A stretch of 60,694 nucleotides of DNA. Source: a virus. Lineage: Duplodnaviria > Caudoviricetes. The position numbers were made by a program, and so were the translations under genes. Below are positions 33,314 through 55,768 of this stretch, piece by piece. The stretch lies in IMG/VR virus record IMGVR_UViG_3300044630_003799, positions 1 through 60,694 of that record, one strand, 5' to 3'. The notes beneath the pieces are model-generated. The model did no database searches and was not told the DNA's origin. It saw only the letters and a list, made by a program, of their open reading frames with translations. How positions within the stretch are numbered: position 1 is the first letter of the stretch; every line of letters starts with the position of its first letter.

Positions 33314-35140
33314 TTATATCATTCTTGGCGAAAAAGTAGATACTTCTTTTACTTTTGAAGAAGCTTCTAACTCAAAATAGAACTTTGTCGCCCAATTTGC
33401 TAACATTAATGTAGTATAATTATCTTTTCTAGCTCTATTAGGAGACATATCTCTTTTTAAATGTTGAGGTAGATCAAAGGATTGAGATCCTTTGGCAGAA
33501 GATTTTACTTCTATTAACGCGCATTGCTTTTTCGTCTGATATATAATATTATCTTGGAATTCAATGAAATCTAAAATAGATTCATGACCGACATTATCTA
33601 AATTAACATGACAAGAACTTTGTATATCAAAAGCTTCATTATTAGCAGAAGTTCTAGATGCAAACCAAACTTTTTTATGGTCAATACAAGCTTGTAAATA
33701 GTTATTTGCTTTACGAATGAAATCAGTAGTGAAATTTTGTTTAAAACAAATCGCGCCTTTTTCTACGTTATATTCTCTCGCAGCTTTGCGCGTCATGTTT
33801 ATATATTCATTTCCTTCAAGAGATGTATCAGCTTCAAAGAATCCTAAATTAATATTAGACTTCTTGAATAATTCACTTTCTCTTGCGCTATCAATAAACT
33901 GATAACCAGCATTATCAATGCATATCATGACTATATTAAAACTAGTCATCAAATAATGAAGATAAGTTATATGAGCTTTTAAATTACCACCAGCAACAGC
34001 GTAACCATGAACGAGAGTTCCTTGTTTACGCTCTTCATCTAATTCAAAAACAGACATAGCAAAATAGTCAGAACTTGGACTATTAGAAAAGCTTGGATCA
34101 ATTCCTAGAATATATTTAGTATTAGATTTTCCTTTGATTAATGTATATGGAGCTTCTCCATCAGGAATAGTGCATTCATGCATCTTTTTTGCGCTAAAAT
34201 ATCCATCACTACCATCAGTAAATTGAGCGCAATATTCTCGCAAAAATGAACTGTGAGAAGTGCCGCCATTTTGAGCTTCTTCAATGACGGTATTATCAAT
34301 CATGTGAGTTGGCAAAGCTTCATAACTCATTTGAGCTATAAAATAAGTAGCATCGCCTTTTTCATTTGAATAAATCTTATCGTTCCACTCTTTATAAGTT
34401 TTATATAAGTTCTCGAAAGTAAAAGACGCAGAAGATAAAGCGATCATCTTAGAAGTATTTGGAAAGACCATTCTTTCCGCTTCAGTCATATGACCATCTT
34501 TAATTAATTTATCCTCAATTTCTCTAATTTCCATACGCTCTTTCATGTTCTGAGGAGCGACAAGGAATGGCATCAATACAGTTTTAATAATATCTTCAGG
34601 TAATAGAAGATACTCGTCTAGTAATAGAATATTGGCGCGAAAACCACGAATCTTTTCTCCGTTGAGAGGTATGGCTGTAATGGAACCTCCATTAATTTGC
34701 CATTCATATTGATCGTTTCGTTTGGCTTTCACGCCGAAAGCTTGTTGAAGAAGTTCGCCGCCTTTTGAATCGACAATCTTCTCTAAATAGTTAAAAATAA
34801 AACGCGCAGTTCTAAATGTAGGGCCAGCAATTAGAATTTTTGTATTTGGTTCAAATACGCATTGCAAAAAGCAGAACACGCCACCAAGGAATGTTTTACC
34901 GCAACCACGGCCAAGAACATTCATGCAGAAATTACGGTTCATCATTCCTTTGAGAATCATCTCTTGGAATGGTGCGAGTTTTATTCCTGAAAGTAATTCA
35001 GTAGTAAATCCTACATTGTTTCTTAGAAACTTGGCGAGAGTAATACGAGCTTCTTTATCATCAAGTTCTCCTTTAAGAAGCTTATACTCTTCATTTAAAT
35101 CAGGAAAATCTGATTTATATTTGTCTGGACAGTAAATCAT
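33314..35140 (-). CDS. terL: terminase large subunit
   Basis: Walker A GRGCGKT, Walker B LLLDE, LSSA coupling motif, FLREYCAQF, nuclease ILGIDP and KDNY motifs. Confidence 0.85.
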   Translation of the reverse strand: MIYCPDKYKSDFPDLNEEYKLLKGELDDKEARITLAKFLRNNVGFTTELLSGIKLAPFQEMILKGMMNRNFCMNVLGRGCGKTFLGGVFCFLQCVFEPNTKILIAGPTFRTARFIFNYLEKIVDSKGGELLQQAFGVKAKRNDQYEWQINGGSITAIPLNGEKIRGFRANILLLDEYLLLPEDIIKTVLMPFLVAPQNMKERMEIREIEDKLIKDGHMTEAERMVFPNTSKMIALSSASFTFENLYKTYKEWNDKIYSNEKGDATYFIAQMSYEALPTHMIDNTVIEEAQNGGTSHSSFLREYCAQFTDGSDGYFSAKKMHECTIPDGEAPYTLIKGKSNTKYILGIDPSFSNSPSSDYFAMSVFELDEERKQGTLVHGYAVAGGNLKAHITYLHYLMTSFNIVMICIDNAGYQFIDSARESELFKKSNINLGFFEADTSLEGNEYINMTRKAAREYNVEKGAICFKQNFTTDFIRKANNYLQACIDHKKVWFASRTSANNEAFDIQSSCHVNLDNVGHESILDFIEFQDNIIYQTKKQCALIEVKSSAKGSQSFDLPQHLKRDMSPNRARKDNYTTLMLANWATKFYFELEASSKVKEVSTFSPRMI

Positions 35141-37139: not shown

Positions 37140-37829
37140 TTAATAAACGTCTATTCCGCCATTATGGATATTTACCTTTATCTTCTTGATAATAGCTTTT
37201 TGCATGTTCTTTATCTGCTTATATCCAGGATTTCTATTTTCTTCTGTACTCTTATATCCCATCTTTTTAGCCGCTTGCTTTTCTGTCATTTTCTTTATAT
37301 ACAACATTTCATATAGTTTCCATTCTAACGGCTTCAAAAACTTCTTCATCTTCTCGTCTAGATCTAATTTAAACTTATCTATATCAATAGAATCTTGATA
37401 ACTTGTATCGACGCAATTTTCTAAAGACTCAAAAGAGACTGGCATATTTAAATTATATGCATGCTTCTTATTTTTCTCCCATTCTTTGTATAATGGGCAA
37501 TTTGAACATTGTTTTCCGAACTTTTTGCACCCTTCATCTGGTTCAGCTTCTGGACATTGGGCGCAAGGTTTAATAAAATTCAGATAATTATTGCGGATTA
37601 AATTCTTTATCTGATTTGATATGATTCTATTTACCCAAGGAGCCAATGGCTTTTTTGGATTATAAAGATGCCACTTTTTATATATATGAATACGAATGAT
37701 CTGAGAAACGTCATCAAAATCTATCCAAGTTAAACTGGATAGATTCCATTTATTCCTTCTTTTACTTATTTCGTTGTCGATTATGCTTATCGACTCTTCG
37801 AAAGAAGGTGATGACTTTTTCTTTTTCAT
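37140..37829 (-). CDS. phage sigma-70-family sigma factor (probably late) with a Cys-rich insertion
   Basis: region-2-like DFDDVSQ...WVNRIISNQIKNLIR; region-4-like HTH TEKQAAKKMGY; CAQC..C..CSNC insert. Confidence 0.65.
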   Translation of the reverse strand: MKKKKSSPSFEESISIIDNEISKRRNKWNLSSLTWIDFDDVSQIIRIHIYKKWHLYNPKKPLAPWVNRIISNQIKNLIRNNYLNFIKPCAQCPEAEPDEGCKKFGKQCSNCPLYKEWEKNKKHAYNLNMPVSFESLENCVDTSYQDSIDIDKFKLDLDEKMKKFLKPLEWKLYEMLYIKKMTEKQAAKKMGYKSTEENRNPGYKQIKNMQKAIIKKIKVNIHNGGIDVY

Positions 37830-38244: not shown

Positions 38245-38964
38245 TTATTTCGAAGATTTTAGTTTATTAACGATAAACTTCACTATTTTTGATCGAACAA
38301 TGTCTTCTTCATCAAATGTGAATGTATATATTCCCATAGCTTTACTATCTTCATCAGAGAATAAATTAAATAATTCTTCAAAGCCGCCAGCTTTATTAGA
38401 TGGCAAATCTGTTTGCATAGGATCAGCAAGAACGAAACAGCGGCTAAATTCACCTAGACGAGTAAGAACTGTGACTATTTCTTTTTTTGTGCTGTTTTGA
38501 CATTCGTCGAGGATAATAGACTTTGCCGCCCAACTCATACCGCGAGAATAATTTATTGGATACATTGAAATGCGCTCTTCTTTTTCCAACTTGTCAACTT
38601 CGGCGCGGGGTAATAGTTCATCCAACTTCTCTAGAAACGGCAGATTGTAGAACTGAAGTTTTTCACTTGCATCTCCCGGCAAGAAACCAATCTTACTATC
38701 ACTACTTTCTACAGCAGAACGAATATATATAATATCAGAGACTTTTTTCTCATTTAGTAACAATAATGAAACATAAGTAGCAATAATGCTCTTTGAAGTA
38801 CCAGCGGGACCATTAACAAATATAATGCGAGTATCTTTATTTGTAGCTAAATCTATAAATGCTTTTTGTTTATCAGTCCATTTTAAAGCTCTAACACTTA
38901 AAGAGTCCTTGATTTTTTCTCTTTGAGATACTTTTGGAGACTCGTCTTTTTTCTTTTGTTTCAT
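38245..38964 (-). CDS. phoH: PhoH-family ATPase
   Basis: GPAGTSKS (variant Walker A), IGFLPGD, RGMS, ILDECQN, LTRLG, QTDL and DIVRS motifs. Confidence 0.9.
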   Translation of the reverse strand: MKQKKKDESPKVSQREKIKDSLSVRALKWTDKQKAFIDLATNKDTRIIFVNGPAGTSKSIIATYVSLLLLNEKKVSDIIYIRSAVESSDSKIGFLPGDASEKLQFYNLPFLEKLDELLPRAEVDKLEKEERISMYPINYSRGMSWAAKSIILDECQNSTKKEIVTVLTRLGEFSRCFVLADPMQTDLPSNKAGGFEELFNLFSDEDSKAMGIYTFTFDEEDIVRSKIVKFIVNKLKSSK

Positions 38965-39046
38965 CTTATGTTATTGTAGTATTATAACGAATAAATAGAT
39001 ATATATTAAAATTACTATATGTAATAGGCGATTTCTCAGAAAATAC

Positions 39047-39282
39047 TACCCCGTATTTTTCACCCATCAAAGAATATAGAAAATACCACTTTCTTTATTT
39101 TTTCAAAAATAGGGGGGTATATACATATATTTAATTATAAACATAGATACAAGAGTAATTATTTTATTCAGAGAGAATATAGTATATACAAAAGAGATTA
39201 TTGAAGATGGGGAGAATGAAGTTAATCCCCTCCCCCCTGTTACTCAAAAGTCAAGTCTAAAATTTTTTGGAAAATGGGGGGG
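39047..39282. repeat. C-run/G-run inverted repeats at the boundary between late and early regions
   Basis: TACCCCGTATTTTT (39047) / AAAAATAGGGGGGTA (39105); CCCCTCCCCCC (39227) ... GAAAATGGGGGGG (39270). Confidence 0.5.
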
Positions 39283-39283
39283 T

Positions 39284-39320
39284 TGGCATAGGGCTTGCTA
39301 TAGTAGCAAGATGTATGCCA
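39284..39320. promoter_or_regulatory. head-to-head pair of sigma54-type -24/-12 boxes
   Basis: TGGCATAGGGCTTGCT (+, 39284) and TGGCATACATCTTGCT (-, 39305-39320). Confidence 0.7.
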
Positions 39321-39339
39321 AGTGGCGTTTTTTGACCAC

Positions 39340-39364
39340 AAAAAAAACCTCCCTTTCGGGAGGT
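39340..39364 (-). terminator. intrinsic terminator
   Basis: ACCTCCC-4nt-GGGAGGT hairpin plus T-run on the minus strand. Confidence 0.8.
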
Positions 39365-39386
39365 CTGGTCTTGACTTTCTAGTGTC

Positions 39387-39824
39387 TCAATCTGCGACGT
39401 TGACGACGTTTTCCATCTTGAAAAGTAGAAACTCGGGGTTGTCCTTTTCTGGAGTATAGGAACGAATCGTTTCTAGTTCCTTTGGCGTGGCTTCGCGGCC
39501 ATCGACAAGGTATCTGGTCGTTAACTTCGCGGAGCTAGGCAATGCGGCAATGTAAAGCTCACCTGTCACCTTGTGGCGAACAACGCCATCCTTAACCCAT
39601 TCCCACCACGTTGGCTTTCCGACAGGCTCCCGGCCTTCCTTTTCCAATCGGCGACCGTAAGAACCAATTCCTGCGACATTGGCGATGATTCGATGGTCCC
39701 TTGTGACTCGCCCCGTCAAAGGGTTGACAGGAATGCCAGAACGCCCCCCCTTGTTCATCTTATGCTCCCCCTGAAGGAGAACCGTTGCAATGTGTCCCGC
39801 TTTGATAGTGTCGATGTCGATCAT
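39387..39824 (-). CDS. hypothetical phage protein (likely start MIDIDTIK)
   Basis: GC-richer coding; TTGCAA-17-GACTCT promoter upstream; own terminator. Confidence 0.6.
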   Translation of the reverse strand: MIDIDTIKAGHIATVLLQGEHKMNKGGRSGIPVNPLTGRVTRDHRIIANVAGIGSYGRRLEKEGREPVGKPTWWEWVKDGVVRHKVTGELYIAALPSSAKLTTRYLVDGREATPKELETIRSYTPEKDNPEFLLFKMENVVNVAD

Positions 39825-40040
39825 GTTTTCTAGTGTTACGTTGTTTGCATTAACAACGTGGAAAGAGTCGCATGGGGCGAAAGAGTTTGCAACGGGTTTT
39901 TTCACTTTTCTTTTGGTAATCAATGTCCAGGCCATTAGGTAATCAAAAATACTTGGAAAAAACTATTCAAAACATCTTGACGCTCCGCCCCGTTTGCTTC
40001 ATGCTATGCATGCAAGATAAGCAATAAACAAGACAATAAC

Positions 40041-40271
40041 ATGGAAACTCCAATGGAAAAGCTTTGCAACTCTGAAATCTTCCAATTACAACAAGGTCTC
40101 GTTCTGAGAATCGAAGAATTAGAAACTCGCGTGAAAGAGTTGGAAGATATGAAGATAAATAACAACGAAATGTTAGACGTTCTGAAATATTGGCAAAAGG
40201 ATTTGAAAGAGGCTATAGCACTAAAGGAAAGATTTGACACTTCGTACAACGTAACATTCAAAAGGTATTAA
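40041..40271 (+). CDS. small coiled-coil hypothetical protein
   Basis: downstream of a TTGACG-17-CATGCT promoter. Confidence 0.6.
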   Translation: METPMEKLCNSEIFQLQQGLVLRIEELETRVKELEDMKINNNEMLDVLKYWQKDLKEAIALKERFDTSYNVTFKRY

Positions 40272-40272
40272 T

Positions 40273-40455
40273 ATGAAAGTTGAATTGTCAGGAATAGAAC
40301 TTGCTACTATCCGCTTGTCATTAATGGAAAAGATAGAAAAGGCGGAAGAATGTATCAAAATGTTACAAGATACAAATAATAAAGAATCAGAAAAGTTTTG
40401 GCTAGATATCAAAGAAAGTAATAAAAACTTGCTAGAAAGACTATACAAGATTTAA
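40273..40455 (+). CDS. small hypothetical protein
   Basis: tightly packed after the previous ORF; followed by a hairpin terminator at 40466-40494. Confidence 0.55.
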   Translation: MKVELSGIELATIRLSLMEKIEKAEECIKMLQDTNNKESEKFWLDIKESNKNLLERLYKI

Positions 40456-40509
40456 CACAAGGCCTGGGCTGTAGTAATACAGCCCTCCCTTTTTGTTTAT
40501 AAATAACGC

Positions 40510-40715
40510 AGAGTTGCAACCTGGGGGGTGGTCTAGCATAAAGCATGCCAACCTCATGTTGGCATAGAACTTGCTAGGGGGAATGAGAGTTGCAAGTCGG
40601 GGGGTGGTCCACCCCCCACTTTGCAAGTCTAAGTTGGCACGAAAGATGCTCCCCAGCAAAAAGTGTGCCAAGTCAAGGTTGGCACGATAAATGCTCCCCA
40701 GCTTAAACCATGCCA
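40510..40715. promoter_or_regulatory. composite element: one half and one full TTGCAA/G-run hairpin plus six sigma54-type boxes
   Basis: boxes at 40535(-), 40560(+), 40635(+), 40655(-), 40680(+), 40700(-), all GG-N10-GC; full hairpin at 40586-40631. Confidence 0.75.
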
Positions 40716-40855
40716 ACCTCAAAAAAAACGCGAAATTTATTTTCTTTTTTTTCTTGCTTTTCGCTTTTTGTTTTCCCTTTTTCCCAGGTTTTCGACCCCA
40801 AAAAAAACGCAAAAAAAAAGTAGACAGGAAAACGGTTTTGCCCTACCTTAAAACC

Positions 40856-41200
40856 ATGCAAAACGAATTGAGCGCGGAAAACGAAATGTCGGCCCTTGCA
40901 AATGTCTCTTTTGTTGAGACTGAAATCGAAAGGGAAACTATGTTTGAACACGGGTTTTATCACAAGAAAATTGTGTTGAATTATGATAATACAATTGTTT
41001 ATGTTGTGTTTGACACTTGTGAAGGCGAGTCTTTTGTTGAATCGGCCATTTATGATAAATCTGGTTTATCAAATGAAGATATCGAATGGATTGATAGTGA
41101 GATTGAGTGTTTCTCACAAGATTGGGCCGATAATTACAATAAAGGAATAAAGGAAGAAAACGAAGAATATTACGCTCTTGTCCGAAAAGGTATCGAATAA
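40856..41200 (+). CDS. acidic hypothetical protein (leaderless start MQNELS)
   Basis: TAGACA-17-TACCTT-6-ATG; the longer ORF call from 40691 runs through regulatory DNA. Confidence 0.6.
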   Translation: MQNELSAENEMSALANVSFVETEIERETMFEHGFYHKKIVLNYDNTIVYVVFDTCEGESFVESAIYDKSGLSNEDIEWIDSEIECFSQDWADNYNKGIKEENEEYYALVRKGIE

Positions 41201-41210
41201 ATAAAACAAA

Positions 41211-41242
41211 AAAGGTCGCTCTGATAAAACGGGGCGACCTTT
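41211..41242. terminator. hairpin terminator
   Basis: AAAGGTCGCTC...GGGCGACCTTT. Confidence 0.65.
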
Positions 41243-41282
41243 AATAAAACAAAAAATTAAATAAATAAATAAATAATACAAT

Positions 41283-41516
41283 ATGAAAAACGTTTCTATT
41301 CAAGACATTTCCTTCAAATACAACGAATATGCTGATATTATCATTGCGTTAAACGACAAAATCGAAGCAATTAATTTGTCAATTCAAACGGCGCAAAATC
41401 TAAATGTTCAGACTTCTGTTCAATATTGGAACGGGCGTAAAGCCGAAATAGTTAACACTAAAACTCGATTTGAAGAAATAATTAGAGCTATTGATAAAGC
41501 AACTTATAGCGTTTAA
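41283..41516 (+). CDS. small hypothetical protein
   Basis: ORF with an A-rich leader. Confidence 0.55.
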   Translation: MKNVSIQDISFKYNEYADIIIALNDKIEAINLSIQTAQNLNVQTSVQYWNGRKAEIVNTKTRFEEIIRAIDKATYSV

Positions 41517-41537
41517 TAATACAATAGCCCTGGGTTG

Positions 41538-41578
41538 TACTAGTACAACCTGGGGCATCCCCCCACTCTGCAACTCTA
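41538..41578. repeat. degenerate copy of the TTGCAA/G-run hairpin element
   Basis: ..GTACAACCTGGGGCATCCCCCCACTCTGCAACTCTA. Confidence 0.65.
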
Positions 41579-41737
41579 TTACAATAGTCCAGGCTATTTA
41601 TAAACACGACAAATCACTAAATATTACTATTTGTTAAATATCTGACAATCTTCGCCGATTCCTATTTGTCACTTTTAAGGTAAAATTTGCCCGAAAAAAA
41701 CCGTTGACTTTCTGAAAAACTAAAGTATTTTTGCGTC

Positions 41738-42118
41738 ATGAAAAAGATTTTCGCCCTATTTGCTCTGTCTATTTCAATCAATGCGGCTAACCTTGATCCG
41801 TTTTTTGCTGCCCTTGGCAAGGTAGAGTCAAGCGGCAATGCAAAAGCTATCAATAAAAAAGAATATGCTTTGGGTATTTATCAAATCCGCGCAAATTATT
41901 TCAAAGATTCAAATATTAAAGGAAGTCACGAAGATGTTTACAATCCTATTATTGCAAGGCGCGTGTGTGAATCCTATTTCAAGCGATATGCTCCCGAAGC
42001 GTATGTAAAAGGAGATTTTGAGACTCTCGCCCGTCTTCACAATGGGGGACCGTCTTTTGTCAAGCGCAAATCTTCAACTGATAATTATTGGAACAAAATC
42101 AAAAAGAATCTTTATTAA
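41738..42118 (+). CDS. secreted lysozyme-like muramidase (i-type/destabilase-like)
   Basis: signal peptide; VESSG catalytic Glu; G.YQI...Y..D and ARLHNGGP motifs. Confidence 0.7.
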   Translation: MKKIFALFALSISINAANLDPFFAALGKVESSGNAKAINKKEYALGIYQIRANYFKDSNIKGSHEDVYNPIIARRVCESYFKRYAPEAYVKGDFETLARLHNGGPSFVKRKSSTDNYWNKIKKNLY

Positions 42119-42277
42119 TAAAATAATATGAATAACGATAATTTTGATAAACTCTTTAATATTGTTTTGGGCCTTACTTGTATTAATGTTATTCTTGGCG
42201 TTATTGTAGTATGCGTGGCTCTTAATATTTTTTAAAAATTGTTTTGACTTGCGCCGTGTCAAGAGCAAAAATCACTC

Positions 42278-42463
42278 ATGACAAAAAATTGGACTCCGCG
42301 CTCTGAAAGATGGACAACCTCAGAGCGTCAAGAAAAAAAATTGCAAGCGCAAAATGCGCGGCAAATTCGGTGGATGTTCTGGCGTGAAAGTCAAGTGATT
42401 CGTGAACAAATCGAAAAAGAATTATCTGAAAAATTGATTGCAAAACGTGCGGCACTGGAGTAA
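42278..42463 (+). CDS. small basic hypothetical protein
   Basis: TTGACT promoter directly upstream; its 3' end encodes the next gene's promoter. Confidence 0.5.
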   Translation: MTKNWTPRSERWTTSERQEKKLQAQNARQIRWMFWRESQVIREQIEKELSEKLIAKRAALE

Positions 42464-42472
42464 ATTGTCCCC

Positions 42473-43114
42473 ATGCAAAACGAGATGACGGTCAAACAAG
42501 CGGTTGAGTTCGTGGGCGGGTTTTCTGCACCCAGCAAAATGCCTTGTCAAGGGTTTTCAATCCCGGCGTGGCTTTGCAAAACAGGAATGAAGCTTAGGAA
42601 TGTTTCCGGTTCTATCTGTTCAAAGTGTTATGCGTTAAAGGGTCGCTATGTTTTCCCCAATGTTAAAAATGCATTGATTCGTCGTGTTAATAAAATAAAT
42701 GATCCATTGTGGGTTACCGCAATGACAATTGCAATCAATGGTACAGAATCTTCTGGTTACTTTCGGTGGCATGATAGTGGCGATATTCAATCTCTAGAAC
42801 ATTTGACAAAGATTTGTCAGATTGCAAAGAATCTTCCTAACATTGATTTTTGGCTTCCGACTCGCGAATATTCAATCGTTGCCGAATATGTTAAACAGAA
42901 CGGCGCGTTTCCTGAGAATCTCACTGTGAGACTGTCTGCTCTTATGATAAATGGTCAACCTCCTTTTGCTATTGCAAATAGACTTGGTCTTGTGACAAGC
43001 GGTGTGTCTGACACTGGTTTCACTTGTCCTAGTCCGTCACAAGGCAATAAATGTTTGAATTGCCGCGCTTGTTGGAATAAATACGTTGCCAATGTTAACT
43101 ATAAAACGCACTAA
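42473..43114 (+). CDS. Gp88-like Cys-rich phage protein
   Basis: C..CSKCYA, FRWHDSGD and C-terminal CP....CLNCRACW motifs. Confidence 0.75.
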   Translation: MQNEMTVKQAVEFVGGFSAPSKMPCQGFSIPAWLCKTGMKLRNVSGSICSKCYALKGRYVFPNVKNALIRRVNKINDPLWVTAMTIAINGTESSGYFRWHDSGDIQSLEHLTKICQIAKNLPNIDFWLPTREYSIVAEYVKQNGAFPENLTVRLSALMINGQPPFAIANRLGLVTSGVSDTGFTCPSPSQGNKCLNCRACWNKYVANVNYKTH

Positions 43115-43116
43115 TT

Positions 43117-43326
43117 ATGATTCCCGTTTCTTTTGGTTACAAAGTTTCTGTTGAAATAGTTCGTGACATTGCAAATGATATTGCTAAAGTCAATATCCAC
43201 TCTCCACTATCTAAGAATAAAGTATGGACAATGCCTCACAGTTACAAATCTAGTCAATTCTCAGATTATCAAATAATAAATGACGCAAATTTCATTTCTG
43301 TTATGAATAAGCGTTTTCCTAAATAA
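43117..43326 (+). CDS. small hypothetical protein
   Basis: tightly packed ORF. Confidence 0.5.
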   Translation: MIPVSFGYKVSVEIVRDIANDIAKVNIHSPLSKNKVWTMPHSYKSSQFSDYQIINDANFISVMNKRFPK

Positions 43327-43327
43327 T

Positions 43328-43516
43328 ATGAAAAAGCATCGTTTAATTCGTTTAATAAAAGATCGTGGCTGTGTTATCACTAGAATGTTTTTGCCAAAAG
43401 ATACAGTAGTTTATGCAAATCATCTAGTCGAAGACGTGTGGTCCATCACACTTGGCAAAGATAATAACATAGCGATTTCTGTTTTAGAATACGAGCATTT
43501 TGAGTTTGTTGAATAA
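43328..43516 (+). CDS. small hypothetical protein
   Basis: tightly packed ORF. Confidence 0.5.
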   Translation: MKKHRLIRLIKDRGCVITRMFLPKDTVVYANHLVEDVWSITLGKDNNIAISVLEYEHFEFVE

Positions 43517-43634
43517 ATAATAACATGGAATTAATAGCAATTCTTTTGTTAGTGTTTTTGCTTTTAATGTTCGCGCCAAAGAAAAAATAATACGCGCCCT
43601 GGTTAGTGACAAATCGCTGTTTATAAACAGCGAC

Positions 43635-43682
43635 AGAGTTGCAACATGGGGGGACCCCCCTACCCCCTACCTTGCAAGTCTA
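43635..43682. repeat. TTGCAA/G-run hairpin element
   Basis: AGAGTTGCAA-CATGGGGGGACCCCCCTACCCCCTACC-TTGCAAGTCTA. Confidence 0.8.
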
Positions 43683-43800
43683 CCACAAATTGCGACCGAT
43701 GTCAAGCATTATTTTTGATTAATCGAACGTATTTCCAGGTACTTAATTAAAATTTGAAAAATTCTTTGACTCCTTCGATTTTCCCCTGTAGTCTGTAGAC

Positions 43801-43986
43801 ATGAAAATTAAAACTGAAATTGACATTAACGACATTGTTGTTCTGAAGATCGCCCTTGGCAACGCTGAACGGCGCATTAACGAACTCATGAATGACAAGC
43901 CAGACTGGCGCAAGCTTTATGATCTTGACAAAGAATCTGTCGAAAAAGCGAAAAAAATTGTTGCAAATCTGGTCGCGAACAGCTAA
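43801..43986 (+). CDS. small hypothetical protein (leaderless)
   Basis: TTGACT...TAGTCT-6-ATG. Confidence 0.6.
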   Translation: MKIKTEIDINDIVVLKIALGNAERRINELMNDKPDWRKLYDLDKESVEKAKKIVANLVANS

Positions 43987-43995
43987 GATCTTGTC

Positions 43996-44190
43996 ATGAA
44001 ATACGAATTGATCATCGCGACCGACACTTGCGACAGTTTCTTGAATTACCCACACACTCGCGAAGGTCTTGAAAAAGCTTTTGACAGAGTGAACAAAGTA
44101 AGGTCAAAAGACGGCTTTCAATATGCGCGAATCATTTCAGACCGAGATGGCGAAGTTTTCGCCCTTGACATGAGCGTCACAATAAATTAA
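43996..44190 (+). CDS. small hypothetical protein (leaderless)
   Basis: TTGCAA-17-TAAGAT-6-ATG. Confidence 0.55.
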   Translation: MKYELIIATDTCDSFLNYPHTREGLEKAFDRVNKVRSKDGFQYARIISDRDGEVFALDMSVTIN

Positions 44191-44377
44191 TTTTCTCAAT
44201 TTTGTGTGGCATGGTGCGTAGGGAGATCCTACGACAGGGAGTTTTTTCAAGCTGTATCTTGACTTTTTGACCCGCATGAAACACCACACATTCTCCTTTT
44301 TATTGCAAAAAAAAATTGACATTGCGCCAAAAATGATCTAGTCTTTTTCCGTTGGTTAAAAAAATATTGCTAAAAAA

Positions 44378-45229
44378 ATGAAAAACACAGTCAAAAATGC
44401 GATCCGTCACCTTGTCACAAAAGCTTACGAAGTTTTTGCAAAAGACAAAAATAATATCAGTGTTGTATCACTTCCCGGTAGTGTGTGGGAGTTTGAAACG
44501 TCTGTGATTAATCACAAAGATTTTGCTGATAATTTCAGCAAGTCTTACAATCTGGATATGCAACTTGCGGAGTGTGATAACAATATCTATGATAGTAATT
44601 TGCGCCCGATATCTACTTTGTTTCCCCATAACAAAGTGAGTTCCTATGCTCTTTCTCGGGACTTTGTTAAATACTACAATCAATACCTTAATACAGATAT
44701 CGTCAAAAAGGCTAAATCAGATAATATCTTTGCGTGGTTTGACTTTTGTGGTAATCCTACTACACAAAGCCTGGAATTGATTAACACTGCTATCGGCAAG
44801 AATGTTACTTATGTCTTCACTTTCAATACACACTGGCGTTGCGACACTAATGTTGATCGCGACGTTCTGAGCTTCGCGAAGTCTATTGATAATAAGCCTG
44901 TTGCAATTCACACTTTTATAGAGAAAATCGCTCTTAATGCTGGTTTGACAATTGTTTGGTCGTTTGAATACATCTCTAATCACAATCCCATGATTACTAT
45001 CTGTATCAGCAATGACGCAAATGTTATCGCTGAAAAGTCATTCAATATCAATACTGTCGCCTCTAAGGTGAAAAAGGTTAAAGTCATTAATAAACCTACA
45101 AAGCGCGATTTGTCCGCTGTTTATGTTGATGTAAAGGCAAAGGTTGATGATAAATCTATCTGTGTCAAGCACAATATCACTGTTGGAACACTCGCTGCTG
45201 TTAAAGCTTGGGTGACAATGGGTAAGTAA
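44378..45229 (+). CDS. hypothetical protein, possible SAM-dependent methyltransferase-like fold
   Basis: SLPG..E and FAWFDFCG motifs; TTGACA-17-TAGTCT promoter; terminator at 45250-45280. Confidence 0.4.
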   Translation: MKNTVKNAIRHLVTKAYEVFAKDKNNISVVSLPGSVWEFETSVINHKDFADNFSKSYNLDMQLAECDNNIYDSNLRPISTLFPHNKVSSYALSRDFVKYYNQYLNTDIVKKAKSDNIFAWFDFCGNPTTQSLELINTAIGKNVTYVFTFNTHWRCDTNVDRDVLSFAKSIDNKPVAIHTFIEKIALNAGLTIVWSFEYISNHNPMITICISNDANVIAEKSFNINTVASKVKKVKVINKPTKRDLSAVYVDVKAKVDDKSICVKHNITVGTLAAVKAWVTMGK

Positions 45230-45249
45230 TACAAATAGATAGTCAAATA

Positions 45250-45280
45250 ACTCCACTGTGAATAACAGTGGGGTTTTTTT
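45250..45280 (+). terminator. intrinsic terminator
   Basis: ACTCCACTGT...ACAGTGGGGT plus T-run. Confidence 0.75.
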
Positions 45281-45294
45281 GTTTATAAATAACA

Positions 45295-45342
45295 TAGACT
45301 TGCAACATGGGGGGAGGGGCATCCCCCCAACCTGCAACTCTA
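45295..45342. repeat. TTGCAA/G-run hairpin element
   Basis: TAGACTTGCAA-CATGGGGGGAGGGGCATCCCCCCAAC-CTGCAACTCTA. Confidence 0.8.
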
Positions 45343-45501
45343 ATATCATAACACTATATATATATCACTATACCCAGGTCTTATTTACATGTATTTCGGT
45401 AAAATATGGCAAAATTTGCCGATGTATTTAGATGTTTTATTTTAAAATTTGGACGATTTATTTAATAAAAAACCCTCACTATTTAGTGAAGGTTATTGTA
45501 T

Positions 45502-45987
45502 TTATTTCTTGGTTTGTTTTCTAGTACCAGTAACTTCGTACACTCCCCAATCAATCTTATTTACTCCAAATACATAATCTTCTGGAATAGTCAAATAATG
45601 TACTTGAATAAAGTGTTTGATGGCTCGCTTGGCGTTATTGTCTGAGTGATAACGCTTGCCGACAATCGGCGGAGAGAACTTAGTATTTTTGCGCGGATCT
45701 TTCAATCCCTTTTTCTCATTTCTTTTCGCGACCTTCGCCGCCTCTTTTGCAAGCATTCTTTCCTTGCTTTCTCGGGCGAGCTTGTTTCTCAACGCATTTC
45801 CACGAAGAGGCTTGACAGGTTCAGGGGCATCTGGATTAACTTCCTCGTCGTTCTTGAGTCCGCGACGACGTTCCCACGCCTTAAACTTCTCGTCGAAGTC
45901 TTGAAAGAGACCCATTGGAAGGTCAGCACCGCCGACATCCCACCACGCAAAAGACTGTCTAATAGTTCCGCGATATTGGTCACTCAT
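45502..45987 (-). CDS. basic hypothetical protein
   Basis: 161-aa K/R-rich ORF followed by a hairpin at 45466-45494. Confidence 0.55.
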   Translation of the reverse strand: MSDQYRGTIRQSFAWWDVGGADLPMGLFQDFDEKFKAWERRRGLKNDEEVNPDAPEPVKPLRGNALRNKLARESKERMLAKEAAKVAKRNEKKGLKDPRKNTKFSPPIVGKRYHSDNNAKRAIKHFIQVHYLTIPEDYVFGVNKIDWGVYEVTGTRKQTKK

Positions 45988-46044
45988 CTTTTTTTGGAGA
46001 TATAATTAGTAGAATAAATACAACAAGGAGGATAACAAATAATA

Positions 46045-46236
46045 TCATTCTGGCGGCAAAACTTGTTCAAACTCGACACTAGATCCACTCAGATCCCGAA
46101 TCAGTTCGCGACTAACACTATCAAGAGTGCGCCGCCCAGTCAACTGAAAAAATACACTCTCTTGTTTTTTATCTACAAATTTCTCACGGCGGACACCATA
46201 GATGTTCTGAGTATAATACTTAATTGTCATTTTCAT
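46045..46236 (-). CDS. small hypothetical phage protein
   Basis: QNIYG...QLTGRRTL motif seen in small phage proteins. Confidence 0.5.
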   Translation of the reverse strand: MKMTIKYYTQNIYGVRREKFVDKKQESVFFQLTGRRTLDSVSRELIRDLSGSSVEFEQVLPPE

Positions 46237-46277
46237 TTTTTTTATTCTTTCTGTTGTATAGTTTTTTGTTTTTGTGT

Positions 46278-46823
46278 TTAACGGTAGATGGTGGCAGAGA
46301 TTTGCGAAGTGACTTGAACAGTTGGAGCGTTGACGGTAACTTTTTCATATAGCTTTTTCCATCGAATCTCAGTTTTGCAAGTCATGCATTGATACTTAGC
46401 TCGGTTTTTCAAAATACGATTATGTTTAGTAGTAGAAATAAAAATACGGTCATTGCAATTACAAAAATATTGATGGCGAGTAACAACCTCGAAAGTGTGA
46501 CAGCGAGTTGGCTCTTGACCAATAACACGCATAACTTTCTCCCATTCACAGCCATGTGGTGCAATAGTATATCCATAAACATGACGCGCAATAAGGTGTG
46601 CAGCTTCGTGACCGGGAGTATCATTGATAAAAGCATCTCCATTGGCATGAAGCATATCATTGTTGAGAGCAATTTTATTCAAAAAACACTGAGCATAACC
46701 AGCGCGACGACCCTTCAGCTTGAAGCTGACCGTCGGGAAGTTGAAGCTCATGTTGTAAAACTTGGAAGCCATGTCGAAGGCTTCGTTGATTCGTTTGATC
46801 GCTTTCGCTTGCAGTTCAGTCAT
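46278..46823 (-). CDS. SprT-like zinc metalloprotease
   Basis: HEAAH zincin motif, PHG.EW..VM, C-terminal CNC/C..C Zn ribbon; leaderless start MTELQ at 46823. Confidence 0.85.
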   Translation of the reverse strand: MTELQAKAIKRINEAFDMASKFYNMSFNFPTVSFKLKGRRAGYAQCFLNKIALNNDMLHANGDAFINDTPGHEAAHLIARHVYGYTIAPHGCEWEKVMRVIGQEPTRCHTFEVVTRHQYFCNCNDRIFISTTKHNRILKNRAKYQCMTCKTEIRWKKLYEKVTVNAPTVQVTSQISATIYR

Positions 46824-46916
46824 GCGTTGACAATAGCACCTTGCAGTGTAAGGGCAAGGGAAAAAGTAAAAAAAGTGCGTCAAGCAAAAAAAATAATTTT
46901 CGCATCGACCTGGAGT

Positions 46917-47085
46917 TGGCACGGTTTCTGCCTGAGCAAGATGTATGCCAAGTAGAGTTGCAAAGTGGGGGGTAGGCTACCCCCCAAAGGGGGCAACTCT
47001 ATACTATACCATACCCCCAGAATCTTGTCAACACTTTAAAATATTTATTTCCAGGTTATTTGGCAACCTTGGCACGATCTTTGCT
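46917..47085. promoter_or_regulatory. composite element: sigma54 box pair, hairpin element and a single sigma54 box
   Basis: boxes at 46917(+), 46935(-), 47070(+); hairpin at 46953-47001. Confidence 0.75.
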
Positions 47086-47206
47086 TGTGTCGCCTCCAGG
47101 CTGTCGCGAAAAAAAACTTCGAAAAACTTCAAAAAAACCTTGCGGATATTTTCCCCATCCTATACCTTGTCCTCGTCAGTCAACATTAACACATTGCAAA
47201 AACATT

Positions 47207-48247
47207 ATGGCTCATCAAATTGAAGTTCGCGACATTCAAGCTGGCATCGAACAGGCTTGGCACGGTCTCACCAAGGTTGTCCCCATCGTCACTTTCGACG
47301 ATGCGTTCCCTTTCGAGATCGAACGCCTTCCGTTGCTGGTCGCGAACGACACTCCCTTGGAAGGCTGGTCGTTCTTCAAGTGCAGCGACGACGGCAAACC
47401 CGCTGGCGTTCCCGTGTTCGAATCGTACAACGCTCTTTCCAACGCTCGCTTCTGGGAGATCGTGCAGAATGCGGTGGGCGGTACGGGTGCGGTCATCGAA
47501 TCCGCTGGCTCCATTTACGACCGTTGTCGCCGGTTTGTGACGGTGAAGCTTGGCACTGACCTCGACACTTTCAATGTGGGCGGTCGCGAGTTCAAGAACC
47601 GCTTCAGCCTCCTCGACAGCATCGACGGCAGCACCAACTTCTACGGGGTCAACTCCTCGACCTGCGTCGTTTGCGCGAACACCTTCGCGGTCGTCATGGG
47701 CGACACCAGCGGCGAATTCCGGTTCAAGATCCGCCACTCCAAGAACCTCCTTCCCAAGATTGAGAACATGGAGAAGGCCATCGACCAGTTTGTGGGCGTG
47801 ACCGCTCAGTTCAAGAAGGCGTTGGTGATCGCGAACGAAATCCCCGTCACTCCCACCGATGCTCGCTCGCTGTTCGCTGGATGGGCAGCGACCGACACCA
47901 ACGGAATGTCCTCGCGGTCATTCAACACCGTCACCCGCCTGACTGAGCTTTTCAATCGGGGCGCTGGAAACAACGGCGAGACGCTCCTCGACGCCTTCTC
48001 TGCCGTCACCGATTACTATTCTCATGAGTCGAGCGGCGGCGCTGATCAACCCGGCTTCCGCATGAAGCAGACCATTTCCAGCGAGTTTGGGTCTGGGTCG
48101 CGCAAGAAGCAGGATTTCTTCGCGAACCTCTTCACCGCGAAAGGCAAGGAAGATCCGATCTTTCAACGTGACTCTTTCGACAGCCTCGTCAGCAGGGGGC
48201 GGACGGTGATCAAGACGATGGAAGAGATTGAAGTGGCCGCGAACTAA
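47207..48247 (+). CDS. DUF932/TIGR03299-like phage/plasmid protein
   Basis: AWHGL N-terminus; IESAG, DS.DGS, VVCANT, IRHS and AFSAVTDY motifs; TTGCGG-17-TACCTT promoter; about 60% GC. Confidence 0.8.
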   Translation: MAHQIEVRDIQAGIEQAWHGLTKVVPIVTFDDAFPFEIERLPLLVANDTPLEGWSFFKCSDDGKPAGVPVFESYNALSNARFWEIVQNAVGGTGAVIESAGSIYDRCRRFVTVKLGTDLDTFNVGGREFKNRFSLLDSIDGSTNFYGVNSSTCVVCANTFAVVMGDTSGEFRFKIRHSKNLLPKIENMEKAIDQFVGVTAQFKKALVIANEIPVTPTDARSLFAGWAATDTNGMSSRSFNTVTRLTELFNRGAGNNGETLLDAFSAVTDYYSHESSGGADQPGFRMKQTISSEFGSGSRKKQDFFANLFTAKGKEDPIFQRDSFDSLVSRGRTVIKTMEEIEVAAN

Positions 48248-48264
48248 GCCACAAAGTCAAACAC

Positions 48265-48290
48265 AAACCCACCGAAAGGTGGGTTTTTTT
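48265..48290 (+). terminator. intrinsic terminator
   Basis: AAACCCACC-GAAA-GGTGGGTTTTTTT. Confidence 0.9.
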
Positions 48291-48310
48291 GTTGCCCAGA
48301 ACCTGGGCTT

Positions 48311-48398
48311 TGGCATGCATCTTGCTGGGGGCAGGAATCGTGCCAAGTAGACTTGCAGACTGGGGGGTGGTGGGGGTTCCCCCTGACTTGCAACTCTA
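48311..48398. promoter_or_regulatory. composite element: sigma54 box pair plus hairpin element
   Basis: boxes at 48311(+) and 48330(-); hairpin TAGACTTGCAG...TTGCAACTCTA at 48348-48398. Confidence 0.75.
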
Positions 48399-48648
48399 AT
48401 ACAATTAACAAAAAAAATAGCCATATAGATTTTACTCTATACGGCATATCTCCTTATTTAATCTTTATCTGGTAAAATTTACTTCAGACAAGATCTAATT
48501 AGATTTATTACCCCTAAGATAAGTAAAGGAATTCCAATAAATATAGGAATTAAAATAATACCAAAAACTATTTGGAATAATGCTCCAGCTATATCTCCAT
48601 CTGAGCTTTTCATTATTTCGGTTATTTTATTTAAAATTTGACAAAAAC

Positions 48649-48777
48649 TAAACAGTAGAAGGCTCCGCTTTTATGATATCACGGCGCGGGTGTTTATGCT
48701 AACACAACATCATGAAGGTAGTAACAGCAGACAATCTGTTACAATATCAACTACCCTTATTTTACTTCTACTATTTA
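48649..48777 (-). ncRNA. candidate multi-stem structured RNA
   Basis: 13-bp closing stem plus internal hairpins; G-U wobble pairs favour the minus strand; intergenic. Confidence 0.35.
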
Positions 48778-48917
48778 AAATTTACATATTTCCTAGTAAT
48801 TGAGACACATCTTCTGCGCTCAAATTATATTTAATGTGTTGCACTACATCGTGGTCCACATATTTGACATAGGAAATGTTATATAAATCAAATCCTATTT
48901 TATTTACTACGACCATA

Positions 48918-49079
48918 TTATGCGGCGGCAGTTTCTGTTTCATTCTTTACTTCAGCTTCTTCTAGCTTCTTTATTTCGGAGATAAGAGTATACAATTTAT
49001 CACTGACCTCCCACAGATTACGGGTTGCGTTTTTACGAATGAACTCGTTAACAACGAACGCTTGCTCTTTATTAAGCAT
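48918..49079 (-). CDS. small hypothetical protein (53 aa, not in the ORF track)
   Basis: MLNKEQAFVVNEFIRKNATRNLWEVSD...TAAA*. Confidence 0.5.
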   Translation of the reverse strand: MLNKEQAFVVNEFIRKNATRNLWEVSDKLYTLISEIKKLEEAEVKNETETAAA

Positions 49080-49097
49080 ATATACTATATTTATTAT

Positions 49098-49352
49098 TTA
49101 CTCTTTAACAGGGACAAAACCAGGATGAGAATAGTGCATCATCTCGTAATATGGATTACAAATCTTGATAGTATCGCCAATTTTCATCTGCAAAAAGTTA
49201 GATCGTGGGCGCGGCGGCTGAATTACTACTACATTAATAAACTGCGGCATATCTTCTTTAGCATACTTTTCCATAGCATCGTAGATCTCTACGATATAAA
49301 CTTCGCCTTTGGTGGCATCTCCAGTGCGGTTGCCGATGTATTTCCACTTCAT
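49098..49352 (-). CDS. small hypothetical protein
   Basis: TTGACA-16-TAAAGT promoter upstream. Confidence 0.55.
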   Translation of the reverse strand: MKWKYIGNRTGDATKGEVYIVEIYDAMEKYAKEDMPQFINVVVIQPPRPRSNFLQMKIGDTIKICNPYYEMMHYSHPGFVPVKE

Positions 49353-49538
49353 TTTTAACTCAAGTTACATGGTTGATCTATCTGACGCGAACACTTTAGC
49401 AGACTTTCGGTGGTTGTCAAGGGGTCTTTCAAAAATTTCTTCTTGGCCTTCGAAAAAAGTGTAAAAGTTTATATGGTTTATTCTAAAGTAAACGATTCTT
49501 TTTCCTACTTTTATCAAAAAATTTAACAATTAAAATAT

Positions 49539-50507
49539 ATGAATATAGATAACTTCGCAACGCCAAATCGAAATCAATACGTATTAAAAAGATACGGATC
49601 TAATATTGCAGTAACATTTGCTAAAACAGAATTTGAAGCAGATGGAATTGATTATAATTTTACTAATGGAAATGTAGGAATAAATATTGATCCTCCTTTA
49701 CTTGTAACAGGTAAGATTACTAATATTGGTAATGTAGGTAATGCAGGAAATGTCGGAGATTATCAAGGTAAATTATTTTATTATTACGCGCAAAATACTC
49801 AAACTCAAGGAGAACAGCCATATTATCCTCCTCCCGTTTCAGGAAGCTATTGGAGATACGATGGTAATAGTGGCAGAGCAGTAACTCCAGGTACATCAGG
49901 ACAATTTCTTGCTAATACAAGTGATTTCACATTTGAATTTTTTCTACAAAAAGGTTCTCAAAATCTTTATAACGCTGGACAATTTGGATTTGGTTATCCA
50001 AACTATGGAAGCAAAAATTGGATTATTAAAGATAATGGCGGAAGTCCATTAGAATTCGTCTGGACAACTGGAGATTTTAACACTTCTTCTTTGCAATTAT
50101 GTACTGATAATTCTGTATTTGATAATTTTTCTCACGTTGCAATTGTTAGAAAAGGTGGAATTCTAAAATCTTATTTAAATGGAACTTTAGTAGATACTGA
50201 AACTGGCGCAGCAGCAGCTACAAGTTTTGATGCATCTTATGATTTCAAAATAGGCGCGGCAGATGGAGCAAATAATTATTCTACAGCTAATTTCTCAAAT
50301 ATCAGATATGTAGTAGGATCTGGCTTATATGACTCTGATTTCTCCGTACCAAATCTTCCTCTTCAAGTTGTAAATGCTTCAGGAACAAGACTATTAATTA
50401 CTGGTTTTGGAGGTACAGACTCTAGTCTTTGGGGCGCTACTATTGATTCTACTCCTAATTATTCAGGAACAACAGCAATAGTTGTAGTAGATAGTCCTTA
50501 CGCCTAA
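49539..50507 (+). CDS. orphan LamG-like virion protein
   Basis: DFTFEFF, HVAIVRKGG..SYLNG and SNIRYV motifs; GTGTAA motif at 49459. Confidence 0.7.
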   Translation: MNIDNFATPNRNQYVLKRYGSNIAVTFAKTEFEADGIDYNFTNGNVGINIDPPLLVTGKITNIGNVGNAGNVGDYQGKLFYYYAQNTQTQGEQPYYPPPVSGSYWRYDGNSGRAVTPGTSGQFLANTSDFTFEFFLQKGSQNLYNAGQFGFGYPNYGSKNWIIKDNGGSPLEFVWTTGDFNTSSLQLCTDNSVFDNFSHVAIVRKGGILKSYLNGTLVDTETGAAAATSFDASYDFKIGAADGANNYSTANFSNIRYVVGSGLYDSDFSVPNLPLQVVNASGTRLLITGFGGTDSSLWGATIDSTPNYSGTTAIVVVDSPYA

Positions 50508-50556: not shown

Positions 50557-51474
50557 TTATTTATTCAATAACGCACAACCTTTGGCCGTAATAAGCCTTT
50601 GACCATCTATTTCTATATATCCTTTAGACAATAGATAATTCTCATGATCTTTCTGAATACTATTTCTACTCAGTCCAGTACGAGCAGACAATGATTGCAA
50701 TGACTGCCGCCCTTCTTTTCTCAATATATTTAGTATTCTCCATTCAATCTGGCTGCAACCTTCTGGTAAGATACTAAGAGTGTCGCACAGATCTTTCACT
50801 TCTACCATAGAGAAATGATTTATATTCCTGGATTTACTATAAAACTGTATATCTTTAACTCGTTGCACACAGTTTCGCGCATTACCTCTAAAAGTAGATG
50901 AAATATAATCTAATGCATCATCTGCGAAAGTTATATTTACAAGATTATTAAGGAAAATTTGGCTCAAATCTCCTTGACTGTAATTATCAAAGTCTACTGT
51001 AATAAGGCGATCTTTGAACGGTGCGAAGATCTTGTCGCTTTCAGTCGTGGCAAAAAGAAAAGAATGCTTTTTAAAATCAAAAACATATGCAGTTTCTTTG
51101 TGGATAATAGTCTTTTCATGTCCAGATTCTGTATTAAAGATAGACAGAAAAACCATGATCAACTCTTTTGGCAATGCATGAGCCTCGTCAAAAAAGATAG
51201 TTACTTCTTTATCTAGTATAAAAGGTAGATAAATTTGCTCGAAAAACTGATTAACTCCTTTAACTGTAGAACTATTTATTTCTACAAAGGTGCGCTTGTT
51301 ACCTTCATTATTTAAAATATTGCGGCCAAATTCACGCGCAAATTCAGTCTTACCAAGACCTTTCGCGCCCACAAAATTTAAAAATGGTACAATAGAAGTA
51401 CTGTTATAAGCCTCTAGGTAAAAACCTAGTTTCTTTTTAACTGAATCCTGCCCAACAAGTTTATCAAATGCCAT
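50557..51474 (-). CDS. ruvB: RuvB-like AAA+ branch-migration helicase
   Basis: FDKLVGQ, GAKGLGKT, FFDEAH, ATTE, F.DR and RGNAR motifs; C-terminal winged helix ENYLL..GYI. Confidence 0.8.
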   Translation of the reverse strand: MAFDKLVGQDSVKKKLGFYLEAYNSTSIVPFLNFVGAKGLGKTEFAREFGRNILNNEGNKRTFVEINSSTVKGVNQFFEQIYLPFILDKEVTIFFDEAHALPKELIMVFLSIFNTESGHEKTIIHKETAYVFDFKKHSFLFATTESDKIFAPFKDRLITVDFDNYSQGDLSQIFLNNLVNITFADDALDYISSTFRGNARNCVQRVKDIQFYSKSRNINHFSMVEVKDLCDTLSILPEGCSQIEWRILNILRKEGRQSLQSLSARTGLSRNSIQKDHENYLLSKGYIEIDGQRLITAKGCALLNK

Positions 51475-54787: not shown

Positions 54788-55768
54788 TCATTCAAGAACT
54801 ACATTATTATTACGCTTTTCTATTCTGCCAATAATGGTACAAGGTATATGTTCAGATAGTTTTGCTATGCAATGATTTACATCATTAACTGATACAATCC
54901 AAGTCATACCAATTCCCATATTAAATACTTTATACATTTCTTCATCAGGAATATCACCGGCAGATTGAATGCGTTTAAAAATATCTGGTACAGTCCAGCT
55001 TCTTTTTTGAATTACTGCTTTGAACTGAGGCGGCAATGTGCGTGGAATATTATCAATCAGTCCGCCACCTGTAATATGAGCGGCGGCTTTGATAAATTGT
55101 CTACAAGCATTAAAAGCTTGAAGATAACTAAGATGAATACTTAACAATTCTCCAGCATATTTATCAACAAGACTGTCGCCTAATGCTTTTCTCGCTAATG
55201 TATATCCATTTGTATGCAAACCATTGCTTTGCAAACCGATAATATAATCACCTTCAATTACTTTGCTACCATCAATAATGTTATCTTGATCAACAACACC
55301 AACGATTGTACCACTAAGATCATATTCGTTTTCTGCATATAAATCAGGAAGTTGAGCGGTTTCACCGCCAATCAAAGCGCAATTATTATAAGAACAAGCA
55401 TCAGAAAATCCTAATAGAAGTTCATTAAATACTTCTTCATTCAATTTATTCATTCCAATATAATCTAAGAAGAATAATGGTTCTGCACCTGTTACAATAA
55501 TATCATTAACGCAGTGATTAACTAGATCATGCGCGACATCATAATGAGTATCATATTTAAAAGCAAGTTTTAGCTTGCTTCCAACGCCGTCTGTGCTAGA
55601 AACAAGAACAGGATTCTTGTATTTACTTGTATCTAGCTTAAAAAGACCGCCGAAACCGCCGATCTTACCTAAAACTTCGGGGCGTGTTGCATTTTTAACT
55701 ATATTAGGTATGCTAGATTTAAGTCTATTACCTAAATCAATATTTACTCCAGCTTTTGAATAATTCAT
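54788..55768 (-). CDS. purM: phosphoribosylformylglycinamidine cyclo-ligase (AIR synthetase), auxiliary metabolic gene
   Basis: Y..AGVNID.G, GGFGGLF, STDGVGSKL, NDI...GAEPLFFLDY, GGETA, SNGLHTNG, HITGGG and FNMGIG motifs. Confidence 0.95.
   Translation of the reverse strand: MNYSKAGVNIDLGNRLKSSIPNIVKNATRPEVLGKIGGFGGLFKLDTSKYKNPVLVSSTDGVGSKLKLAFKYDTHYDVAHDLVNHCVNDIIVTGAEPLFFLDYIGMNKLNEEVFNELLLGFSDACSYNNCALIGGETAQLPDLYAENEYDLSGTIVGVVDQDNIIDGSKVIEGDYIIGLQSNGLHTNGYTLARKALGDSLVDKYAGELLSIHLSYLQAFNACRQFIKAAAHITGGGLIDNIPRTLPPQFKAVIQKRSWTVPDIFKRIQSAGDIPDEEMYKVFNMGIGMTWIVSVNDVNHCIAKLSEHIPCTIIGRIEKRNNNVVLE

Follow-up and report, generated by a model that had tools for sequence, protein, structure and literature searches.

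What are sites for a bacterial sigma factor doing in a phage genome, and what reads them? The question is raised by a linear IMG/VR virus record of 60,694 bp (IMGVR_UViG_3300044630_003799; ~35% GC, completeness estimated at ~40%), analyzed over its whole length and hereafter called the window, in which boxes of the sigma-54 (RpoN) -24/-12 type lie between genes, mostly as mirrored pairs that face each other on opposite strands. In bacteria, to which the vast majority of the known sigma-54 promoters belong, this factor is regarded as governing nitrogen use, motility and the response to envelope stress; a systematic use of it by phages is not known. The boxes described here are sigma-54-type sites that occur far above chance and are confined to the early/control region of the window, and their mirrored layout is phage-specific, being common to many unrelated phages and nearly absent from bacteria.

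Sigma-54-type boxes in the window and in other phages

Thirteen boxes make up the array (predicted starts assume that transcription begins 12 nt downstream of the C in the GC doublet):

39284..39320, mirrored pair A: plus box 39284-39299, minus box 39305-39320, spacer ATAGT (5 bp); predicted starts 39310 (+) and 39294 (-)
40535..40575, divergent pair B1: minus box 40535-40550, plus box 40560-40575, 9 bp between them
40635..40670, mirrored pair B2: plus box 40635-40650, minus box 40655-40670, spacer CCCC; predicted starts 40661/40644
40680..40715, mirrored pair B3, beginning 45 bp after B2: plus box 40680-40695, minus box 40700-40715, spacer CCCC; predicted starts 40706/40689
46917..46950, mirrored pair C: plus box 46917-46932, minus box 46935-46950, spacer TG; predicted starts 46943 (+) and 46924 (-)
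47070..47085, single box, plus strand, directed toward the DUF932 gene (ATG 47207); start predicted at 47096
48311..48345, mirrored pair D: plus box 48311-48326, minus box 48330-48345, spacer GGG; predicted starts 48337/48319

A search of the window with TGGCAYN7GCY returned 15 matches, compared with 1.06 ± 1.04 expected from 100 dinucleotide shuffles of the window (largest value 4). Only one match falls in positions 1-38964, while 14 fall in 38965-49600 and none beyond, so that neither shuffled DNA nor the late region is comparable in density. When the spacing was varied from N4 to N10, N7 alone was enriched, with 0-1 matches at the other spacings. The two surplus matches (3563, minus strand; 47242, plus strand) are intragenic, lack the T before the -12 GC (TAGC and AGGC), and are what chance predicts. 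The remaining 13 are those listed in a preliminary description of this DNA, in which every coordinate and strand proved exact, as did the five facing pairs with only 2-5 bp between them (spacers of 5, 4, 4, 2 and 3 bp). All 13 are intergenic; open reading frame (ORF) 40691-41200 overlaps the box at 40700, its most likely start being ATG 40857. Likewise, all 13 carry a T ahead of TGGCA (TTGGCAY), for which the pattern did not ask, and all have the GG-N10-GC spacing of one helical turn that marks sigma-54 -24/-12 elements, in agreement with the match to the RpoN consensus proposed earlier. The identity noted between positions 39305 and 46935 was also recovered, the 19-mer AGCAAGATGTATGCCAAGT occurring exactly twice in the window. 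The resulting density is ~13 sites in 9 kb, spread over four gene-free spacers.

The mirrored layout is not peculiar to this record. At least 118 IMG/VR phage contigs contain the pattern TTGGCAYN6TGCY-N2-5-RGCAN6RTGCCAA, with 156 matches among those listed, at loci whose GC content (among the matches listed) ranges from 27 to 63%. By shared ORFs (≥80% identity) the listed loci fall into 45 groups, of which that of the window has 29 members; the phage groups with mirrored pairs number about 46. In contrast, 596 Gb of prokaryote genomes (bacteria and archaea) yielded the mirrored pair at only 11 loci, at least one of them on a phage-like contig (L136) and several within coding sequence. We found no paper describing such a layout in a search of the literature on sigma-54 box arrays in phages, which covered the articles themselves.

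One of the prokaryote loci, a contig (L132) of a metagenome-assembled genome (MAG) labelled Clostridia, carries sigma-54-type boxes at 1742, 2965 and 4260, the third being a mirrored pair, each 123-179 bp upstream of a metabolic gene (for a Fumble/BadF-like ATPase, an NAD epimerase and a PHP-domain protein); it may represent a real bacterial use of the mirrored layout.

In seven complete or near-complete phage records most boxes lie in one stretch of ~1-10 kb each, with a few scattered strays, and in three of these (G013, G016 and G018) that stretch is the gene-poor main control region from which leftward and rightward gene blocks diverge. Spacers of 2, 3, 4 and 5 bp occur in 57, 44, 31 and 22 pairs, respectively; divergent, tandem and single boxes exist as well, and in arrays the pairs are packed as close as 43-46 bp. 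Because all four spacers are common and boxes also occur outside mirrored pairs, the unit is the asymmetric 16-bp box and not a dyad.

Other repeats were seen beside mirrored pairs. Six loci of a single phage group (L012, L017, L028, L049, L072 and L111) have perfect DnaA boxes TTATCCACA about 10 bp from the pairs, on account of which a role as replication origin was considered but not adopted. In record G018 (L145, 8540-9000), repeated motifs containing ACATATGT surround a perfect TTGACA-17-TATAAT promoter next to mirrored pairs, and look like an operator or iteron set.

The reader of the boxes

The sigma-54 consensus is YTGGCACGrNNNTTGCW, with glnAp2 and pspA as promoter examples, and its secondary preferences are a Y ahead of TGG, purines following TGGCAC, a T ahead of TGC and a W following GC. 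Positions -20, -19, -16 and -15 were left free in the search. Among 248 half boxes from the 46 phage groups, a purine occupies -20 in 97% and T occupies -19 in 2%, while T is found at -15 in 62-70% and G at -16 in 4-6%. The free positions thus follow the secondary base preferences of sigma-54. Since they do so, since the unit is an asymmetric box, and since no phage protein fits, the reader is probably the sigma-54 RNA polymerase of the host.

The search for a phage-encoded reader covered 40 records, seven of them complete, and found neither a sigma-54 nor an activator. In the profile search the sigma-54 DNA-binding domain was present in 0 of the 40. The activator domain PF00158 (Sigma54_activat) had no match in the window or in any of the seven complete records and passed the cut-off in one of the 40 (G037), where the match, just above that cut-off, is a RuvB-like AAA+ protein without GAFTGA. 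The window encodes a homologue of it:

50557-51474, minus strand, RuvB-like AAA+ protein with a C-terminal winged helix, 36% identical to the G037 homologue

This protein was dropped as a candidate activator, as it lacks the GAFTGA motif and occurs in only 2 of the 40 records. A host activator for the boxes is possible as far as this profile test goes. No shared enhancer was seen at the boxes.

The same comparisons bear on a different identity of the sites, namely operators of another DNA-binding protein, of the phage or of the host, whose bipartite site happens to resemble that of sigma-54. The reader is a prediction from sequence, mirror symmetry is typical of dimeric regulators, and phages of the window's family have a gene for a sigma-70-family factor of their own adjoining the boxes; the ORF family of this factor is the most frequent one near mirrored pairs, at 34 loci in 7 of the 45 groups. 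No neighboring ORF family exceeds 7 of the 45 locus groups, however, and no blastp family is common to all of eight phage records compared, the widest (6 of 8) being tail-fibre-like. A dimeric operator would also sit poorly with spacers of 2-5 bp that are all common and with the existence of single and divergent boxes, both of which point to the asymmetric 16-bp unit, while the free positions copy even the minor preferences of sigma-54, and the recurrence of one motif across phages of 27-63% GC calls for a very conserved reader. We therefore regard operators of another protein as improbable.

Promoters, docking sites or structural elements

The minus-strand block 104-38964 holds the virion and packaging genes (late block), and from 39 to 52 kb small genes occur on both strands. 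Landmark genes are:

33314-35140, large terminase, in the minus-strand block
37140-37829, minus strand, sigma-70-family factor (Sigma70_r2, 27.2 bits), directly upstream of the packaging genes
38245-38964, minus strand, phoH (PhoH), auxiliary gene
54788-55768, minus strand, purM, auxiliary gene

Auxiliary genes such as purM and phoH are typical of aquatic phages. At least 18 metagenome runs from lake or freshwater samples contain DNA of the window, each with half or more of the sampled words. Megablast returned no close cultured phage for the window, its terminase is at most 26% identical to those of cultured phages, terminase searches for cultured models gave relatives of 25-44% only, and the genome ends of Caulobacter phage RLK carry no mirrored pairs.

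The boxes of this phage form part of composite modules of ~100 bp that consist of a plus box, usually a minus box, and then a G/C hairpin without a U tract; the modules align with a mean column identity of 74%. The elements accompanying the boxes are:

40586..40630, plus strand, G/C hairpin element AGAGTTGCAA..GGGGGGTGG/CCACCCCCC..TTGCAAGTCT, 10 nt after the plus box at 40560, with a half copy at 40510-40534
46952..47002, plus strand, G/C hairpin element directly after pair C, forming with it a composite module of ~100 bp
47003..47031, minus strand, best sigma-70-type promoter of the region (TTGACA 47031-47026, 17 bp, TG-TATAGT to 47003; 11/12)
47207-48247, plus strand, DUF932 gene, a ~47% GC stretch in a 35% GC phage, with its own terminator
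48348..48398, plus strand, G/C hairpin element directly after pair D

The homologous box-plus-hairpin modules C and D bracket the DUF932 gene, which looks like a recently acquired cassette because it is GC-rich, is flanked in this way and has a terminator of its own. A contig from a run labelled wastewater is ~92% identical across this gene. Compared with the near-identical contig L014, the window differs by a 45-bp indel at 40569/40570 that spans exactly one box-to-box unit, from which it appears that the arrays expand and contract by recombination between boxes; the plus box at 40560 is the hybrid left by this deletion relative to L014. Two substitutions between the contigs lie inside boxes, one at a variable position and one R-to-R.

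The unit-sized indel and the bracketed, foreign-looking cassette, which recalls the PeSL cassettes described in PMC2839356, are also what one might expect if the boxes were elements of nucleic-acid structure or of recombination, whether cruciforms, RNA hairpins or ends of a mobile cassette, and protein binding were secondary. The mirrored pairs do fold, at -8 to -19 kcal/mol, but the energy comes from the conserved cores only. The variable arms pair at 2.43 of 7 positions, compared with 2.70 ± 0.115 with shuffled partners, and are if anything less complementary than chance. The pairs avoid perfect symmetry: complementary bases stand at the Y/R position next to TTGGCA in just 34% of cases, and 110 of 168 pairs are heterotypic, combining one TGGCAC with one TGGCAT box. 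Rfam gave no family matching the boxes in the region, its one sub-threshold match (Phe_leader, 39338-39449) lying outside them. A hairpin or cruciform identity was rejected on account of these non-complementary arms and of the lack of an Rfam family on the boxes, and wherever a site is repeated its copies can be expected to recombine, leaving the structural or recombination reading as a whole highly improbable. A terminase or packaging site was likewise considered, the arrays lying a few kilobases from the terminase in most complete genomes, and was dropped because the small subunits of terminase differ too much from each other to recognize a common site.

If the boxes are read by sigma-54 polymerase, they could serve as promoters. 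The preliminary description had held that boxes this close cannot both be productive, which does not follow: the starts within the five pairs (predicted, not measured) are 16, 17, 17, 19 and 18 bp apart and point outward, matching the crossed layout of sigma-70 bidirectional promoters, whose start sites are given as 18 bp apart in PMC10268837 and at which one bound polymerase excludes the other according to PMC12825309. Working bidirectional sigma-54 promoters would fire outward both ways with one polymerase at a time; they would need an active host enhancer-binding ATPase or an unrecognised phage activator, and would tie accessory and early genes to host physiology. Besides the geometry, the location of the arrays of G013, G016 and G018 in the main divergent control region speaks for such promoters, as do the boxes at 47070 and 46935, each with a gene ~100-110 nt downstream of its predicted start, and those of the Clostridia-labelled contig, which lie 123-179 bp before metabolic genes and include one mirrored pair.

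The wider gene context argues otherwise. Single intergenic boxes point toward a gene start in 42 cases and toward a gene end in 42, and the stronger C-box is likewise oriented 22:22 relative to genes. Terminators of neighboring genes lie ahead of the boxes at 39284, 40535 and 48330, the one ahead of 48330 being the DUF932 terminator (48265-48286), and many boxes are directed at terminators or at nothing; the association with terminators is weak, with 47, 36, 28 and 15 of 576 boxes in four configurations. Pair A separates the terminator of a 182-amino-acid gene from the minus-strand late block with PhoH, the sigma factor and the terminase. In the window, in G013 and in G018, strong sigma-70 promoters are present in the spacers that hold boxes. 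The earlier statement that the adjacent genes already have sigma-70 promoters is borne out in part, by one strong match in the window (minus strand, 47031-47003), which is directed leftward through the hairpin of module C and pair C, the pair lying within the leader of this transcript toward an SprT-like gene. In keeping with the preliminary description, the boxes are not organized like ordinary gene promoters: single boxes show no gene-start bias. No clear phage activator was found in the records searched and no activator gene in the seven complete genomes, no shared enhancer is seen and pairs 43-46 bp apart leave no room for one, and bacteria almost never use mirrored pairs. Taken together, these points make working bidirectional promoters a rather doubtful reading.

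We tentatively favor, as a possible explanation, genuine -24/-12 sites that are read by the host sigma-54 polymerase mainly as silent docking sites. The mirrored pair would be a crossed unit in which the two -12 ends abut and which one polymerase could occupy in either orientation, probably not two at once, judging from published footprints. Sigma-54 holoenzyme binds promoters in a transcriptionally inactive state, as reported in PMC4591121. The phage sites would mainly hold the polymerase in a stable, silent closed complex, which would either delimit or block early transcription, or sequester a scarce host factor, or do both; the sites would fire only if a host activator happened to be active. 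Silent docking, whether as boundary, roadblock or sink, is narrowly placed above working bidirectional promoters because there is no clear activator and no shared enhancer, and because sigma-70 promoters and terminators stand beside the boxes at cassette and strand-switch boundaries.

Several observations weigh against silent docking. The RpoN of the host is presumed, the hints at the host being the canonical sigma-70 promoters and a phage-like relative of the window, a contig that falls in a MAG bin labelled Methylococcus. The 42:42 count is weakened by crude ORF calls that miss small early genes, and sequences within a phage group are not independent, so that such counts are indicative only. 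Mirrored pairs are found at divergent junctions in 36% of cases compared with 13% of all junctions, as real promoters would be (at convergent junctions the values are 18% and 11%), and the box at 47070 lies 122 bp before the DUF932 start codon, which also fits a real promoter. A permanent roadblock at pair C, within a sigma-70 leader, would be expected to silence the SprT-like gene. Contigs from an RNA run (X19) lie on neighboring genes and none on the boxes, but contigs cannot show starts, and a further run (X20) is probably DNA, so that expression speaks neither for nor against docking.

A stronger form of silent docking, which we consider unlikely, is that the arrays are a DNA-based takeover device that would soak up host sigma-54 or its polymerase into silent closed complexes without any phage protein. 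Such a device, if real, would turn off the stress and surface programmes that depend on sigma-54, or would insulate the early cassettes. The decoy, roadblock and DNA-entry anchor roles put forward in the preliminary description are guesses, and for anchoring we found no evidence.

Relation to known systems

Mirror-paired perfect sigma-54 sites thus recur in about 46 unrelated phage groups of 27-63% GC without a clear phage activator. If host polymerase docks at them, phages would either couple their gene expression to the signalling of the host by a route not yet described, or use DNA by itself to put a host sigma factor out of action.

The closest relatives of the sites are the enhancer-dependent sigma-54 (RpoN) promoters of bacteria, with which they share an identical core, the exact GG-N10-GC spacing and the minor preferences at -20, -19, -16 and -15. 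They differ in forming mirrored pairs, nearly absent from bacteria, and dense arrays (~13 in 9 kb) with no bias in gene orientation, and in having no activator gene or shared enhancer among the records searched.

In their crossed geometry the pairs resemble the symmetric sigma-70 bidirectional promoters (Warman et al. 2021, in PMC10268837; PMC12825309), which are crossed opposite-strand promoters with outward starts ~18 bp apart where polymerase binds in either orientation and one binding excludes the other. Symmetry in that system is a by-product of a single near-palindromic -10 hexamer, whereas here two full 16-bp boxes would each have to be maintained, with starts that are only predicted. 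The crossed geometry would extend the idea of the symmetric bidirectional promoter to a second sigma family.

The non-productive and intragenic sigma-54 sites of E. coli (PMC4591121) offer a parallel for the proposed action, as inactive holoenzyme is bound there with no obvious gene served; for the phage sites such binding is predicted. The E. coli sites are single, scattered and mostly intragenic, in contrast to the intergenic, paired, arrayed and phage-specific sites described here.

Lastly, the PeSL cassettes of T4-type phages (PMC2839356) are, like the modules of the window, short regulatory repeats that separate small accessory genes and at which indels and exchanges of cassettes are frequent, paralleled here by the 45-bp unit indel and by the modules bracketing DUF932. 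A PeSL combines a sigma-70 early promoter with a terminator stem-loop, whereas the module of this phage combines a sigma-54-type pair with a G/C hairpin that lacks a U tract.

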